The notes under the pieces are model-generated. The model worked only from the letters and a program-made list of their open reading frames with translations, made no database searches and was not told the DNA's origin. From Candidatus Eiseniibacteriota bacterium (GTDB lineage: Bacteria > Eisenbacteria > RBG-16-71-46), in the NCBI GenBank assembly GCA_034678345.1, contig JAXDBZ010000302.1, forward strand, positions 1 to 43,133: a stretch of DNA of 43,133 bases. The letters are read 5' to 3'. Position numbers and translations under genes: made by a program. Below, one piece after another: positions 36,245 through 42,200 of the stretch (the first letter of the stretch is position 1; the number at the start of each line of letters is the position of its first letter).

Positions 36245-36619
36245 CAGGCCGGTTCCCGGAACGAGGCAAGCGCGGCACGCCCTGCCATGGCGCGCGCCGC
36301 GCCGCCGTCCATCTCGCGCGAATCGCCGTTGTGTCGGCTCATCCGTGATCGCTCCCGGCGGGAGACGACTCGTCCCCCGCGCAGCATCCTGCCGCTCCGG
36401 CGGCTGTCGTGTCGGCCACGATTCGCCGGCACCGGCCCGCGGGCCGGCGCATGCAGGTTATCGGCCGGCGGGAGGCCTGACTAGAGGGATCCCGAGGGGG
36501 GGCCCGAGGGGCCCCGGCGCCGCCTGCGAAGCTGGAACTGCCCCCGCCGGAGTGGTAGCGTGCCTTCAATCCCGCCCGGGGAAAGGGCGGCGTGGCGATC
36601 CACACCTCGGAGCGAAGCC

Positions 36620-37246: not shown

Positions 37247-37513
37247 ATGGGAGGCCTTCTCTGGACGATCGTGATCGGTCTGGTCGCGGGTGCCCTGGCC
37301 AAGCTCATCATGCCGGGCAAGGACCCGGGTGGGATCATCGTGACCATCCTGCTGGGGATCGGAGGTGCTCTGCTCGCGACTGTCCTCGGCCGCCTGACCG
37401 GCTGGTACGCGCCCGACCGGGGCGCCGGCTTCATCGCCGCCACGCTCGGGGCGATCGTCATCCTGCTCGTCTACCGCTGGTACAAGAAGCGCCAGGCGGC
37501 CCCGAAGGCCTAG
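37247..37513 (+). CDS. GlsB/YeaQ/YmgE-family small stress-response membrane protein
   Basis: MGGLLWTIVIGLVAGALAKLIMPGKDPGGIIVTILLGIGGALLATVLG. GGAAAGGAG RBS. Confidence 0.85.
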   Translation: MGGLLWTIVIGLVAGALAKLIMPGKDPGGIIVTILLGIGGALLATVLGRLTGWYAPDRGAGFIAATLGAIVILLVYRWYKKRQAAPKA

Positions 37514-37593
37514 CCGGCACCGCCGATCGCCGCGGCGGCCATCCGATTCCGCCGGCCGCGGGAGCACACCGGGTGACCCACAGGGAGGGAGAC

Positions 37594-37860
37594 ATGGCAG
37601 CGAAGAAGAAGACCGTCCGTCGCACCGTGCTGCGCTCGAGCAAGGGCAAGAAGCTCTACGCCGTCCGCAACGCGGACGGGACCTTCAAGGACATCCAGGA
37701 CTACGCCCGCGCGTCGCGCGCCGACCAGGCGAGGAAGTCCAAGAAGGAGAAGGCGGCCGCCGCGAAGAAGGCGGCGAAGAAGCCGGCGAGGAAGAAGGTG
37801 GCGAGGAAGAAGCCGGCGAGGAAGAAGGTGGCGAAGAAGAAGGTGGCGAAGAAGAAGTAG
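37594..37860 (+). CDS. Lys/Ala-rich histone-H1-like basic protein
   Basis: GGGAGGGAG RBS 3 nt before ATG 37594. The N-terminal ~45 aa are non-repetitive (KGKKLYAVRNADGTFKDIQDYARA). The tail is KKAAKKPARKKVARKKPARKKVAKKKVAKKK. Confidence 0.65.
   Translation: MAAKKKTVRRTVLRSSKGKKLYAVRNADGTFKDIQDYARASRADQARKSKKEKAAAAKKAAKKPARKKVARKKPARKKVAKKKVAKKK
37781..37840 (+). repeat. Two tandem copies of a 30-bp unit (one mismatch) inside the H1-like gene
   Basis: AGCCGGCGAGGAAGAAGGTGGCGAGGAAGA at 37781..37810 and AGCCGGCGAGGAAGAAGGTGGCGAAGAAGA at 37811..37840. Confidence 0.85.
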
Positions 37861-37879
37861 CCGCGCCGCCGTGTTCTGC

Positions 37880-37925
37880 GGGGACGGGCGCTTCGGCTCC
37901 CGTCCCCGTCGTCGTACGGGGACGG
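37880..37925 (+). terminator. Three-arm element after the H1-like gene that can form two mutually exclusive hairpins
   Basis: GGGGACGGG (37880..37888) pairs with CCCGTCCCC (37899..37907) around a TTCG loop. Alternatively, CCGTCCCCGT (37900..37909) pairs with ACGGGGACGG (37916..37925). Confidence 0.45.
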
Positions 37926-38018
37926 CGAGTCGCGCGGCGATTCGGGATTGAATGCCCCGCACGCCTGGTGCATTCTGTCGGCGTTCCGATCGCATCCCGC
38001 TCCCGGAGGAACCCGACC

Positions 38019-38876
38019 ATGCGCTGGAAGGGGCGTGAGCAGAGCGGCAACGTCGAGGACCGCCGCGGTGTCGGCGGCGGTGGGCTCGTGCTCGGCGGCG
38101 GCATCGGCACCGTCGTGCTGGTGGCCGCCTACCTGCTGCTGGGCGGCGATCCGTCGCAGCTGTTCCAGATGCTGGGACAGACACAGATGTCCAGCGGCGG
38201 TGGCATCCAGACGGAGCAGACCGGCGGCATCGCCGACGAGGGCCGGGAGTTCGTCGCCGTCGTCCTCAAGGACACCGAGGACGTCTGGGGCGCCCTGTTC
38301 GCGGCGGCGGGCCGTACGTACGAGCCGCCCGCAGTGGTGCTCTTCAGCGGCGGCGTGCAGTCCGCCTGTGGGGTGGCGGGATCATCGACCGGCCCGTTCT
38401 ACTGCCCCGCCGACGGCAAGGTCTACATCGACCTGAGCTTCTACGACGAGCTGCGCGACCGCTTCGGCGCCCCCGGCGACTTCGCCCAGGCCTACGTCAT
38501 CGCCCACGAGATCGGCCATCACGTGCAGAACCTGCTCGGCGTCTCGGAACGCGTCGCCGCACTCCGCGAGCGGTTGTCGGAGCGCGAGGCCAACGAGCTC
38601 TCGGTGCGCGTCGAGCTCCAGGCCGACTTCTATGCCGGCGTCTGGGCGCACCACGCGCAGCGGACGAAGCGGATCCTCGAGGAGGGCGACATCGAGGAGG
38701 CGCTGAACGCCGCCAGCGCCATCGGCGACGACCGGCTGCAGCGGCGGTCCACCGGCACCGTGACGCCGGACTCGTTCACGCACGGCACCTCGGATCAGCG
38801 GATGCGCTGGTTCCGCCGCGGCTTCGAGACCGGCGACCTGGCGCAGGGCGACACGTTCTCGGCGGACAGGCTCTGA
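38019..38876 (+). CDS. ypfJ: YpfJ-type neutral zinc metallopeptidase
   Basis: MRWKGREQSGNVEDRRG, one TM segment, and the HExxH site AYVIAHEIGHHVQN. GGAGGAA RBS. Confidence 0.85.
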   Translation: MRWKGREQSGNVEDRRGVGGGGLVLGGGIGTVVLVAAYLLLGGDPSQLFQMLGQTQMSSGGGIQTEQTGGIADEGREFVAVVLKDTEDVWGALFAAAGRTYEPPAVVLFSGGVQSACGVAGSSTGPFYCPADGKVYIDLSFYDELRDRFGAPGDFAQAYVIAHEIGHHVQNLLGVSERVAALRERLSEREANELSVRVELQADFYAGVWAHHAQRTKRILEEGDIEEALNAASAIGDDRLQRRSTGTVTPDSFTHGTSDQRMRWFRRGFETGDLAQGDTFSADRL

Positions 38877-38885
38877 TCACTCCGC

Positions 38886-38910
38886 GGCGGTCCGGCGACT
38901 CCGGACCGCC
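38886..38910 (+). terminator. Perfect 10-bp hairpin 10 nt after the ypfJ stop
   Basis: GGCGGTCCGG, loop CGACT, CCGGACCGCC. Confidence 0.5.
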
Positions 38911-38945
38911 CCGGCATGCCGCGACCCACGCACGAGGAGGGACGC

Positions 38946-39032
38946 ATGGCGGCAAAGAAGAAGGCGGCCAGGAAAGTCGTGAAGAAGGCAGCCAGGAAGC
39001 CGGCGAGAAAGGGCTGCCGGGGCTGCAAGTAG
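38946..39032 (+). CDS. Unannotated 28-aa Lys/Arg-rich peptide ending in CxxC (MAAKKKAARKVVKKAARKPARKGCRGCK)
   Basis: Too short for the ORF track. GAGGAGG (38934..38940) lies 5 nt before ATG 38946. G/C-rich third positions. Shares the MAAKKK start and the GGGGACGGG/CCCGTCCCC hairpin core with the H1-like gene. TAG at 39030..39032. Confidence 0.45.
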   Translation: MAAKKKAARKVVKKAARKPARKGCRGCK

Positions 39033-39053
39033 CGGCAGGGAAGACGTGCCAGA

Positions 39054-39089
39054 GCGCGGGGACGGGTGCCCGAGCACCCGTCCCCGCGC
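39054..39089 (+). terminator. Perfect 16-bp GC stem with a CCGA loop, 21 nt after the small ORF
   Basis: GCGCGGGGACGGGTGC (39054..39069), CCGA, GCACCCGTCCCCGCGC (39074..39089). Confidence 0.55.
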
Positions 39090-39290
39090 GCGTCCCGGCA
39101 GGGCATCCATCGCCCCGTCTCCGCGCCCGTGACCGGGCCGCCCGCGTCCGTGCTCCATCCCCGCGCGCGGCTTTGTCCCGCCCCGCCATCCGTCGTAGCC
39201 TGCCCGCCACGACCCGCCCCAGGCCCGGGGCAGTGCAAGACACATCGCCCGGCCGGCGATCCTCCGCCGGCCGTCGCTCGTGGAGGGAGT

Positions 39291-42200
39291 GTGCGCGACC
39301 GCGTCCGTACCCGTGTCCTCTGGCTCGCATCCGTGCTCTCGTTCGCCGTGCTGTCGGCCGCTCCCGTGTGGGCGGCCGAGCCCGCGCTGTGGCTGCGCTA
39401 TCCGGCCATCTCCCCGGACGGCAGGACCGTGGTCTTCAGCTACCACGGCAACCTCTGGTCCGTCCCGGCCGCGGGGGGGCAGGCCGTGGCGCTCACGGTG
39501 AGCGCCGCGCACAACACCCGCCCGGTCTGGTCCCCGGACGGCACGCGGCTCGCCTTCGCCTCGGACCGCCACGGGAACTTCGACGTCTTCGTCATGCCCG
39601 CCACCGGCGGCGAGGCGACGCGCCTCACGTTCCACTCGGCCGACGAGTTCCCGTCCAGCTTCACACCGGACGGGCAGCGGGTCCTCTTCGGCGGCACCGT
39701 GCTCGACGCCGCCACGAACGTGCAGTTCCCGGCCGGGGTGCTGTCGGAGCTGTACGCGGTGGACCTCGTCGGGCACATGCCCGAGCAGGTGCTGAGCACC
39801 CCGGCGAACTACGCCGTCTACGACTGGGCCGGCAAGCGGCTGGCCTACTCGGACCAGCGCGGCATGGAGATGGAGTGGCGCAAGCACGACAACTCCTCCT
39901 TCGCGCGCAACGTGTGGGTGTGGGACGTGGCCGCGAACCGGCACACGCGCCTGACGGACTTCGGTGCCGACGACCGCCAGCCGGTGTGGGGCCCCGACCA
40001 GGTCTCGCTCTACTTCCTGTCCGAGCGGAGCGGCACGTTCAACGTCTGGCGGCTCGACCTCGCCGATCCGGCACGGCCGACGCAGGTCACGACGCACGTC
40101 ACGCATCCGGTGCGGTTCCTCTCCAGCTCGCGGGCCGGCGACCTGTGCTACGGCTGGGACGGCGGCATCTGGGTGCGCCCCGCCGGCGCGACGGCCAGCG
40201 TCCCCGTTCCGGTGACCATCCCCGCCGACCGCCGCGACCGCGAGACGGCGCCCCGGGACGTGTCGGGAGAGATCTCGGAGTTCGACGTGTCGCCCGACGG
40301 GCAGGAGGTGGCCTTCGTCGCGCGGGGCGAGGTCTTCGTGGCCGAGGTCGAGCACGGCACCACCCGTCGCATCACGAACACCCCCGGGCAGGAGCGCTCG
40401 GTGGGCTTCTCGCCCGACGGCCGCAGCCTGGTCTACGCCGCGGAGCGCGACGGCGGCTGGAAGCTCTACCGCACGGACCTCGCCGACCCCGAAGAGCCCG
40501 ACTTCTTCAACGCCACGGCGATGAAGGAGACGCTGGTGCTGGGCGGCGACGCCGACGTCTTCCAGCCCCGCTTCTCGCCGGACGGCGCCGAGGTCGCCTA
40601 CCTCGAGGAGCGCACCGCCCTCAAGGTGCTGAACCTGAAGAGCGGGCGCTCGCGCACGCTGCTGCCCGGCGACGTCAACTACTCCTACACGGACGGCGAC
40701 CAGTGGTTCGAGTGGTCCCCGGACGGTCGCTGGCTGGCGCTCACCTTCCTGAGCCATGAGCGCTGGTCGGAGGAGGTGGGGCTCGTGCCCGCCTCAGGCG
40801 ACGGCAAGCTCGTCAACGTGACCCGTAGCGGCTTCGAGGACTCCTCACCCAAGTGGGCGCGCAAGGGCGAGGTGCTCATCTGGCTCACCGACCGCTTCGG
40901 CCTGCGCAACCAGTCGGGCTTCCCCAGCGAGGCCGACGTGCACGCGGCCTTCCTGACCCGCCGGGCCTACGACCGCTACGTCCTCGACGAGGCGGCCTTC
41001 GACCAGCTCAGGGCGCGCGAGAAGGAGGGGGAGAAGAAGGGCGAGGGGGAGAAGCCGGCCAAGGACAGGGGCCGCGATACCGCGAAGGCGGCGGTCAAGC
41101 TCCCGCCGCCGGTGGCGATCGAGTTCGAGGGGCTCGACGACCGCATCGTGCGCCTGTCCGTGGCCTCGGCCGACCTGGCGGGGGCGGAGCTCTCGGCCGA
41201 CGGCGAGACCCTCTACTACCTCGCCCGCTTCGAGAAGGGCTACGACCTCTGGAAGTACGTGCCGCGGAAGAAGGAGGCCAGGCTGATCGCCAAGCTCGGC
41301 GCCGACCGGGCGCGCTTCGCGCTCGACCGCGAGGGCAAGAAGGCGTTCGTGCTGGCGGACGGCAAGCTGTCCACGGTGGAGCTGGAGGGGGGCAAGAGCA
41401 CGCCGGTCCGGGTCGCGGCGCGGATGGAGCTGGACGCGGCCGCCGAGCGCGGCTACCTCTTCGACCACATCTGGCGTCAGACGCTGAAGAAGTTCCACGA
41501 CCCGGGCATGCACGGGGTGGACTGGGCGGCGACGGGCGCGGCCTACCGGCGCTTCCTGCCCTCCATCGACAACCCCCGCGACTTCGCCGAGCTGATCTCC
41601 GAGATGCAGGGCGAGCTGAACGCCTCGCACACCGGCGGGCGCTACCGGCCGACCCGATCCGACGGCGACGAGACGGCGGCGCTCGGCTTCTTCCCCGATC
41701 CCGCCCACCGCGGGGACGGCGTGGCCATCGCCGAGGTGATCGAGGGCGGCCCGCTGGGCAAGGCGGGCACGAAGGTGCGCGCGGGCGTCGTGATCGAGGC
41801 GATCGACGGCTCGCGCATCGCCGCCGGGACCAACTGGTATCGCCTCCTGAACCGGAAGGCCGATGCGCCGGTGCGCCTGGCGCTCTTCGATCCGAAGACC
41901 AACGGCCGCTGGGAGGAGACGGCGAAGCCCGTCTCATGGGCGGCCCAGCAGCGGCTGCTCTACCAGCGCTGGGCACGCTCCCGGCGCGAGCTGGTGGACC
42001 GGCTCTCGGGCGGCCGCATCGGCTACGCACACATCCGGGGCATGAACGACGGCGCCTACCGCGAGGTCTTCGACGAGATCTTCGGCCGCGCCGTGGACAA
42101 GGACGCCATCGTCCTCGACACCCGCTTCAACGGCGGCGGCAACCTCGTCGAGGCGCTCACTGTGTTCCTGAGTGGCAGGCAGTACGCCCGGAACACGCCG

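Follow-up and report, generated by a model that had tools for sequence, protein, structure and literature searches.

A probable Cys-tailed polylysine micro-gene in three species of one Candidatus Eiseniibacteriota genus

We analyzed a 43,133-nt contig of a Candidatus Eiseniibacteriota bacterium (JAXDBZ010000302.1 of assembly GCA_034678345.1; the whole contig is referred to here as the window) and describe a short module, located directly downstream of a ypfJ-type gene, that carries a very small Lys-rich open reading frame (the mini-ORF). The source genome (G000), assembled from a metagenome, comprises 2.8 Mb in 319 contigs, is 87% complete and has a GC content of 73%. A preliminary description of the window had placed a 28-codon open reading frame (ORF), a strong Shine-Dalgarno (SD) sequence and two perfect hairpins in this region, and we find all of these features where they were described. 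The elements of the module are as follows.

38882..38914, plus strand: leader hairpin with a perfect 10-bp core (38886-38910), extended by CCG/CGG.
38917..38933, plus strand: unpaired block TGCCGCGACCCACGCAC, which separates the leader hairpin from the SD sequence and is conserved in the alignment of three species.
38934..38940, plus strand: SD sequence GAGGAGG, with a 5-nt spacer to the ATG.
38946..39032, plus strand: mini-ORF of 28 codons plus TAG (39030-39032), with the ATG at 38946; the product is MAAKKKAARKVVKKAARKPARKGCRGCK.
39043..39050, plus strand: block GACGTGCC in the 3' untranslated region (UTR), invariant in 3/3 species.
39054..39089, plus strand: terminator-like hairpin with a perfect 16-bp GC-rich stem and a 4-nt CCGA loop, which begins 21 nt past the TAG.

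The mini-ORF reads ATG GCG GCA AAG AAG AAG GCG GCC AGG AAA GTC GTG AAG AAG GCA GCC AGG AAG CCG GCG AGA AAG GGC TGC CGG GGC TGC AAG TAG. The encoded peptide consists of xxKK tetrad repeats followed by C-R-G-C-K, with the Cys codons at 39015-39017 and 39024-39026 (C24 and C27). Lys or Arg account for 13 of the 28 residues (46%), and the remainder are A, V, P, G, C and M. The net charge is approximately +13, and a helix-breaking Pro precedes the tail. No signal peptide or hydrophobic segment was identified in the peptide. GGAGG occurs 162 times in the window, which is below the count in shuffled sequences. Due to this commonness the bare motif provides no evidence for translation; what counts instead is that the SD sequence is kept at the same spacing in orthologues.

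The core of the leader hairpin (GGCGGTCCGG/CGACT/CCGGACCGCC) starts 9 nt past the ypfJ stop codon. Within the unpaired block, the segment CCGCGACCCA (38919-38928) is invariant in 3/3 species, and the conserved block as a whole is a candidate site at which a regulator could bind. Both hairpins lack a following T-run, and a terminator scan called neither of them. The region from 38870 to 39110 (241 nt) folds with a predicted energy of -131.7 kcal/mol (z = -5.15 relative to dinucleotide shuffles). No sigma-70-like promoter was called within 37400-39500, and no Rfam family matches the module. In the whole genome, only 11 ORFs in the size range 15-80 aa contain 25% Lys or more. Thus, a Lys-rich ORF is not a chance product in this 73% GC genome. 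Judging by eye, we take one other among the 11 to be the C-terminal part of ribosomal protein L34, and another to resemble bS22. The 28-codon frame is most likely a real, self-contained micro-gene of approximately 240 nt.

We searched the genomes of 41 relatives of G000 at the DNA level and identified the region in two, G003 and G007, which are other, likewise uncultured species of the same genus. The G003 orthologue has 36 aa (MAAKKKVAKKVVKKTVKKVVKKAAMKPAKKACKGCK; 15/36 residues are Lys) and the G007 orthologue has 33 aa (MAAKKKAAKKVVKKAAKKVAKKPAKKACKGCKK; 16/33 are Lys). All three modules share the leader hairpin, CCGCGACCCA, an SD sequence (GGAGGAG in G003 and AGGAGGAGG in G007, at the same place), the ATG, the xxKK tetrads, the C-(K/R)-G-C-K tail, the TAG, GACGTGCC and the terminator. 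The Pro ahead of the tail is present in all three peptides, and the two Cys are invariant. In the alignment, the similarity among the three genomes is confined to one block of approximately 240 nt and vanishes just outside it. Both stems show compensatory changes. In the leader hairpin, T-A is replaced by C-G in G003, with two G-U pairs, and in G007 T-A is also replaced by C-G and one C-G is flipped to G-C. In the terminator, T-A is replaced by C-G in G003, and G-C by C-G in G007, with one G-U pair.

Substitutions in the mini-ORF follow the codon frame. The three pairwise comparisons show 1, 6 and 5; 1, 6 and 9; and 1, 4 and 6 differences at the first, second and third codon positions. Nearly all of the second-position changes are AAG to AGG (K to R), GCx to GTx (A to V) or GCC to GGC (A to G). 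There are four K-to-R changes, which are single-step changes of AAG to AGG or AGA (codons that are rare in the G000 genome), and no K-to-E change (AAG to GAG). Pairwise dN/dS ratios, calculated by the Nei-Gojobori method (NG86) for three orthologues of about 30 codons each, are 0.27, 0.12 and 0.17 in the annotated frame, compared to 0.37-0.76 and 3.2-6.1 in the two shifted frames. Nucleotide identity of the ORF is 83-92%, versus 81-83% for a neighboring 227-aa gene (75-80% at the amino acid level). The preliminary description had proposed conservation of the frame and of the CxxC, with dN/dS below 1, as a check, and the two other species indeed keep both at ratios of 0.12-0.27. Within the limits of this small sample, the frame appears to be under purifying selection among the three species. 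Together with the conserved SD sequence, start and stop, this pattern makes it quite probable that the mini-ORF is a real gene that is translated.

Alternatively, the product could be the RNA itself, a transcript of ~200-240 nt comprising a 5' stem-loop, a conserved block that is single-stranded and seed-like, and a terminator, in which the ORF is incidental or part of a dual-function small RNA. In favor of this, CCGCGACCCA, GACGTGCC and both hairpins are conserved to a degree similar to that of the ORF, the stems covary, and the fold is far more stable than those of shuffled sequences (z = -5.15). Furthermore, a second polylysine gene of G000 (on contig C218, described below) lies within an even more conserved, structured, transcript-like unit of ~300 nt. 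However, the substitutions track the codon frame, with the lowest dN/dS in frame 0, hardly any change at position 1 and no K-to-E change. The SD sequence, ATG and stop are also at fixed spacing, and the module has no Rfam match. We consider it unlikely that the RNA is the product in this sense.

The distribution of the gene is narrow. A profile built from the three peptides has true matches only in G000, G003 and G007 among 89 genomes of the family, and the DNA pattern [KR]-K-x-C-[KR]-G-C-K is found in the same three of 206 genomes of the phylum. Sixteen weak profile matches (E 0.02-0.9) were rejected: 15 proved to be spurious frames rich in Arg, and the other is a Lys-rich stretch that has no Cys and is unrelated (L035). 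Among the weak matches, 'ARKPARKGCTG' in G054 is inside a 113-codon shadow frame. With a stricter pattern, the only additional match among all GTDB species representatives, in a metagenome-assembled genome labelled Clavibacter, is a chance occurrence inside an ETF-beta gene. The motif is absent from four same-genus genomes that are 93-96% complete, and from G002, which is only 54% complete. This restriction to 3/206 genomes indicates that the mini-gene is young and limited to one sub-lineage. We sought an empty site in G005 and G006, where the 227-aa gene is present; synteny is lost beyond it and no ancestral state could be read.

Metagenomic data contain further copies of the gene. A pattern scan yielded 10 matches, only two of which are in frame: L048, which is identical to G007, and L044, which is considered below. 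In several independent samples, gene callers had annotated the 33-aa version (6 contigs) and the 36-aa version (7 contigs). The contigs that we read (5 and 7) are identical over ~700 nt and show no within-population polymorphism. A profile of four peptides has no matches among 1.84 billion representative sequences. As the exact peptides are absent from the clustered collection of 15 billion sequences, such zero counts say little.

The size and charge of the peptide raise the question of a small ribosome-associated protein similar to bS22, bL37, bTHX or eL41, rather than a binder of the nucleoid or of polyphosphate. These proteins have a similar size (24-33 aa) and a similarly extreme positive charge, and the strong SD sequence would also fit. 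Tiny basic ribosomal proteins often escape annotation (e.g., bS22 and bL37; PMC10081302, PMC6133939). G000 additionally encodes the bS22-like peptide MGSGKKRKRKKIATHKRKKRLRKNRHKKRIR, which itself has only a weak COX24_C match. However, the mini-peptide has no sequence similarity to these proteins, its repeat number varies (28-36 aa), and its occurrence in 3/206 phylum and 3/89 family genomes is unlike that of a ribosome component. A sequence search of the PDB, which includes solved ribosomal chains, matched only the tail of uL14 (E = 1.5). A ribosomal role of this kind is therefore quite unlikely.

G000 encodes other small proteins that are Lys-rich or Cys-rich. The C218 polylysine gene (C218:5811-5879) encodes a 22-aa, Cys-free peptide (MAAKKKAAKKKVAKKKVAKKKK). 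It is preceded by the SD sequence AAGGAGGTGAT, a full complement of the anti-SD, is followed by a terminator, and lies between a gene for a sigma-54-type response regulator and uvrA. The locus has matches in 39 of the 41 relatives, across families and orders, and in the 11 loci that we read the peptide is kept as MA(A)KKKxxKKKxxKKKxAKKKK. A sigma-54-type GG-N10-GC motif ~150 nt upstream is well conserved (TGGCAC/TGGAAT ... CTGCT). The unit (C218:5599-5960; L057 1300-1660) has a structured leader and an almost invariant 3' UTR (GGACCTGGCACGTCC ... GGGGATTGG), and may be a dual-function RNA.

The C218 gene and the mini-gene are alike in several ways. Both are tiny ORFs (~20-35 codons) composed mostly of short K/A/V repeats and starting with MA(A)KKK, and both have a very strong SD sequence, their own leader structure and their own terminator, are intergenic and were missed by annotation. 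The mini-gene differs in its tetrad period (xxKK rather than xxKKK pentads), in its Pro and invariant C-x-G-C-K tail, and in its occurrence in three species only rather than family- to class-wide. Its UTRs are unrelated (no similarity between the two modules when tested against shuffles) and no sigma-54-type motif was seen upstream; in G003 and G007, where we sought one by eye, the spacing is unfit. The first 30 nt of the G007 mini-ORF equal those of the conserved C218-type gene. Homology of the two genes beyond their low-complexity ORFs is nevertheless unproven. The mini-gene has the attributes of a class of stand-alone polylysine genes (15-40 codons, at least ~40% Lys plus Arg, own SD sequence and terminator, and variable neighbors), and within this class its new feature is the invariant C-x-G-C-K tail. 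Our literature searches found no report of Cys-tailed or stand-alone polylysine micro-proteins in bacteria.

A Cys-tailed polylysine peptide also occurs outside this lineage. L044 (4013-4126; JGI contig Ga0172371_10022937, 40% GC) is a free-standing gene for a 37-aa peptide (MAAKKKTKKVAKKAKKVAKKAKKTSKKKKCCKGCKCK) with the Cys tail CCKGCKCK and a classical T-run terminator of its own. It is located between a pyruvyl-transferase gene and a gene for an HI0933-like flavoprotein in an unrelated, low-GC organism. It is probably a convergent case, and suggests that Cys-tailed versions arise more than once.

Two further small genes in G000 were observed. The first (C203:73-309; L058) encodes a 78-aa protein that matches neither Pfam nor NCBIfam. 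Its N-terminus carries a cysteine cluster, W-K-G-C-C-G-K-G-C-K-K-C, that is similar to the Cys tails seen in the mini-peptides, and its tail is rich in Lys, Gly and Asp. The second is the bS22-like MGSGKKRKRKKIATHKRKKRLRKNRHKKRIR, an unannotated 31-aa ORF with an SD sequence on the minus strand of C151 (start 13355). The only family match to it, COX24_C, has an E-value of 0.19.

In the window, the closest comparison to the mini-gene is provided by an H1-like gene upstream, outside the module.

37594..37860, plus strand: H1-like gene (88 aa), followed by a terminator, GGGGACGGGCGCTTCGGCTCCCGTCCCC, at 37880-37907.

The preliminary description had noted that the two genes share MAAKKK and a terminator core, and suggested that the mini-gene is a diverged duplicate of the H1-like gene and its terminator. 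MAAKKK is indeed common to both, at the amino acid level; codons 2 and 3 are synonymous (GCG GCA versus GCA GCG). The KKxA-type repeat tail of the H1-like gene is 77% identical to the mini-gene at the nucleotide level over 57 nt. Hairpins with the shared 9-nt core (GGGGACGGG...CCCGTCCCC) number exactly two in the 2.8-Mb genome, those of the mini-gene and of the H1-like gene, and are 1.2 kb apart. A duplicate of the proposed kind fits poorly, because we did not find the H1-like gene in the two other carriers of the mini-gene, in which the mini-gene orthologues already have the GGGGACG(G/C)G terminator core. Simple decay of a copy that originated in G000 thus hardly accounts for the mini-gene. 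Among the 41 relatives, only 4 yielded the H1-like gene, and its protein has no Pfam or NCBIfam match. It has a conserved N-domain of ~55 aa (~MAAKxxRTTxRSSxGKKLYAVRDxxGKFKDIQxYKRAQG), which in other genera (L054, L055 and L056) is seen both alone and joined to a Lys-rich tail, and which is without counterpart in the mini-gene.

To place the shared terminator core in context, we compared all perfect hairpins in G000 with a stem of at least 9 bp (n = 562). Only 0.32% of pairs share a 9-mer, and among pairs less than 3 kb apart sharing was observed 7 times versus 0.8 expected. Thus, local copying or conversion of terminator-like hairpins is suggested for this genome, and it is unlikely that the shared core is pure chance. 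Local exchange between the two modules is possible in either direction. The mini-gene could be the donor and the H1-like gene the recipient, because orthologues of the latter elsewhere have other terminators and often no tail.

These similarities are also the grounds for regarding the mini-gene as a neutral, recent remnant, i.e., a copied Lys-rich tail and terminator, with the H1-like gene or the conserved polylysine gene as source, that has no function of its own. MAAKKK, the KKxA repeats and the terminator core recur in the H1-like gene, close hairpins share 9-mers more often than expected (7 versus 0.8), the first 30 nt in G007 equal the conserved polylysine gene, the distribution is narrow and the G000 copy uses rare codons. 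However, three species in which the neighboring protein is only 75-80% identical all have an intact ORF with its SD sequence, start, stop and both Cys, and dN/dS is well below 1. In addition, neither G003 nor G007 yielded the H1-like gene, and the UTRs are dissimilar to those of the conserved polylysine gene. A functionless remnant is accordingly improbable.

The genes that surround the mini-gene differ among the three genomes. In the following, the 227-aa gene is the first gene of an exopolysaccharide (EPS) operon.

G007: GT2 (minus), 227-aa EPS gene (minus), mini-gene (plus), CorA (plus).
G003: GT2 (minus), 227-aa EPS gene (minus), mini-gene (plus), propeller protein with a type IX secretion system (T9SS) tail (plus), tricorn protease (plus).
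G000: GT2 (minus), 227-aa EPS gene (minus), DUF937, GlsB/YeaQ-type, H1-like, ypfJ, mini-gene, tricorn, CorA.
G000 window, 37968..38876, plus strand: ypfJ-type Zn metallopeptidase gene (Pfam PF04228, E = 1.5e-117, full profile covered).

The mini-gene is a constant element in a rearranging spot, and no same-strand neighbor is conserved. About 245 nt beside the EPS operon are common to the three genomes, and beyond this G000 diverges into a four-gene block. Homology between G000 and G003 begins at the ypfJ stop codon, which abuts the conserved module. Upstream of the hairpin, G003 and G007 share a promoter-like sequence (TTGAAA / TTGCAA - N17-18 - CATCTT / CAAGTT, read by eye from the alignment). 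In G000, ypfJ coding sequence replaces this block at the same position. The window also includes a region upstream of the 227-aa gene (36245-36490) with very high conservation in all three genomes and long invariant runs (e.g., CCCTGCCATGGCGCGCGCCGCGCCGCCG and GGTTATCGGC). It is a candidate leader or regulatory region of the EPS operon.

The preliminary description had proposed that the mini-gene depends on read-through of a ypfJ hairpin. Read-through transcription from ypfJ is probable in G000, because the promoter-like block of G003 and G007 is missing there and homology starts at the ypfJ stop. However, the hairpin is not that of ypfJ. It is kept, with compensatory changes, in G003 and G007, in which no co-directional gene is located upstream, and thus the sequence at 38886-38910 is the leader of the mini-gene rather than the ypfJ terminator.

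Since the neighbors differ in all three genomes, the locus argues against functions of the peptide that are tied to an adjacent gene. One such function would be that of a Lys-codon-rich leader peptide that attenuates the terminator and hence a downstream gene. The ORF is short, a strong hairpin follows 21 nt later, and a same-strand gene is downstream in 3/3 genomes. However, this gene encodes a tricorn protease in G000, the T9SS propeller in G003 and CorA in G007. Minimum free energy folds show only the terminator and local ORF hairpins, with no antiterminator pairing that stands out (the search was not exhaustive). The 21-nt gap would leave a terminating ribosome short of the stem, and the invariant Cys tail would be without a role. 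Attenuation is thus very improbable.

Hardly credible is a role as precursor or substrate of YpfJ or the S41/tricorn protease, similar to a ribosomally produced and post-translationally modified peptide (RiPP), which the preliminary description had raised because both proteases flank the mini-gene in G000: YpfJ is adjacent only in G000, the G003 locus being devoid of it, the mini-gene of G007 is next to neither protease (that locus lacks the tricorn protease), and no maturase-type gene is conserved alongside, the only shared neighbor being the divergent EPS operon upstream, with none downstream. Belonging to the same barely tenable group is a C-terminal extension of YpfJ by UGA read-through, which we rejected: the mini-ORF is in the ypfJ frame, with 51 open codons after the TGA (38874-39032), a hairpin follows the UGA and C63 carries a tRNA-SeC gene, but YpfJ covers the full Pfam profile before its stop, orthologue similarity ends there, Rfam yields no selenocysteine insertion sequence (SECIS) match (E <= 1) and the hairpin exists in relatives without an upstream ORF. 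We judge the shared frame to be coincidence. The tRNA-SeC gene itself (C63:7873-7970, anticodon tca) suggests that the organism probably uses selenocysteine.

Regarding function, it is most plausible that the product is a mini-protein that binds nucleic acids or the ribosome and whose tail is metal- or thiol-active. The functional guesses of the preliminary description, which included binding of nucleic acids or ribosomes and a metal-binding tail, were thus partly right, and its duplication and precursor ideas are not supported. The product would be a cytoplasmic polycation assembled from (A/V)(A/V)KK tetrads, with C-(K/R)-G-C-K as its invariable end. It may bind a polyanion (DNA, RNA or the ribosome, or polyphosphate) by charge, similar to a free histone H1 tail or a protamine. 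By analogy to such proteins, we lean slightly toward the mini-peptide being a polyanion binder.

H1 tails, Hc2 and AlgP bind DNA or polyphosphate through Lys-rich repeats. Hc2/HctB (PF07382), Pseudomonas AlgP and Bordetella BpH1 have low-complexity Lys/Ala/Val/Pro repeats of variable number, as does the mini-peptide, and a similar charge-driven binding to DNA or polyphosphate would be expected. The mini-peptide differs from them in being 5-10 times smaller, in having no second domain and in its C-terminal Cys pair. AlgP is located on polyphosphate granules (PMC9239181), and repeat variation is described for chlamydial Hc2 (PMC2848022). We identified no Pfam family at E <= 0.1, including the Hc2 family, and no NCBIfam at E <= 1 for the mini-peptide.

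The Cys pair may add a second property to the polycation. In mammalian protamines P1 and P2, inter-chain disulfides and zinc bridges lock condensed DNA. These proteins are also short polycations with few Cys, although the mini-peptide is bacterial, Lys- rather than Arg-based, not homologous, and has one CxxC. In the Rad50 hook, one Zn site is assembled from two CxxC motifs of two chains. The mini-peptide similarly has a lone CxxC, so any tetrahedral Zn site would be intermolecular. However, its motif is at the free C-terminus of a 28-aa chain rather than at the apex of a long coiled coil. The metal ligands of the mini-peptide are a single Cys pair (C24 and C27) with no His, as in both orthologues, which is short of the four ligands of a zinc ribbon. 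One-domain zinc-finger micro-proteins of Haloferax volcanii have two C(P)xCG motifs (PMC6562870, PMC10716476). They share with the mini-peptide the very small size and a CxxC-type motif that has Gly or a basic residue after it, but they form a folded knuckle from two CxxC pairs, whereas the mini-peptide has one pair and is otherwise low-complexity.

Because a single CxxC cannot form a Zn site within one chain, the simplest use of the invariant pair is intermolecular. Two chains might pair via their C-terminal CxxC motifs, either by sharing one Zn2+ in a Cys4 site similar to the zinc hook or by forming disulfides. Pairing of this type would turn a monovalent coat into a cross-linker, possibly in a redox- or metal-dependent manner. 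By comparison with protamines and the Rad50 hook we regard Cys-mediated pairing as a tentative possibility.

In our preferred account, the mini-gene is a young polylysine micro-gene whose product binds a polyanion and can form Cys-paired chains. The gene would have originated recently, in the ancestor of the three species. The copies in G003 and G007 would use their own promoter. In G000, an inserted block of four genes (DUF937, GlsB/YeaQ-type, H1-like and ypfJ) would now be directly ahead of the leader hairpin. We consider this account as a whole evenly poised between right and wrong. A more specific version is that of a switchable mini-protamine: as a thiol monomer it would coat nucleic acid or polyphosphate, zinc or oxidation would cross-link the chains and compact the polymer, and the gene would have been born recently by addition of a tandem (x-C-K)2 unit to a polylysine peptide. 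This version is rather doubtful.

Several points weigh against a polyanion-binding, Cys-paired micro-protein that is kept by selection. The G000 copy is the shortest, is without the promoter-like block and uses the rare codons AGG, AGA, GCA and AAA, all of which could reflect relaxed constraint in this genome. The length differences among orthologues are multiples of the 12-nt repeat unit, so the frame is preserved automatically. There are only three orthologues and the rate statistics consequently rest on ~30 codons. Conservation of the UTR blocks roughly equals that of the ORF, and thus selection acts at the RNA level too and could be the main selection. The two Cys could equally be the chance outcome of a tandem 9-nt duplication (GCC TGC AAG / GGC TGC AAG) that has not yet decayed. 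Finally, searches of Pfam, NCBIfam and PDB sequences yielded no profile, structure or family match that gives a functional anchor.

Polylysine micro-genes of this kind are invisible to standard annotation and to protein databases. A single genome holds an old, deeply conserved polylysine gene and a young, lineage-specific one, and the locus of the latter is a small, clean example of a gene that was recently born or remodelled at a recombination-prone spot. The invariant Cys pair in the young gene would be a simple biochemical handle (metal binding or disulfide pairing) on a polycation function. If the peptide merely coats nucleic acids, the finding is modest. If it is true that the Cys gate cross-linking, 28-36 residues would suffice for a new, minimal mechanism that organizes the nucleoid or polyphosphate.

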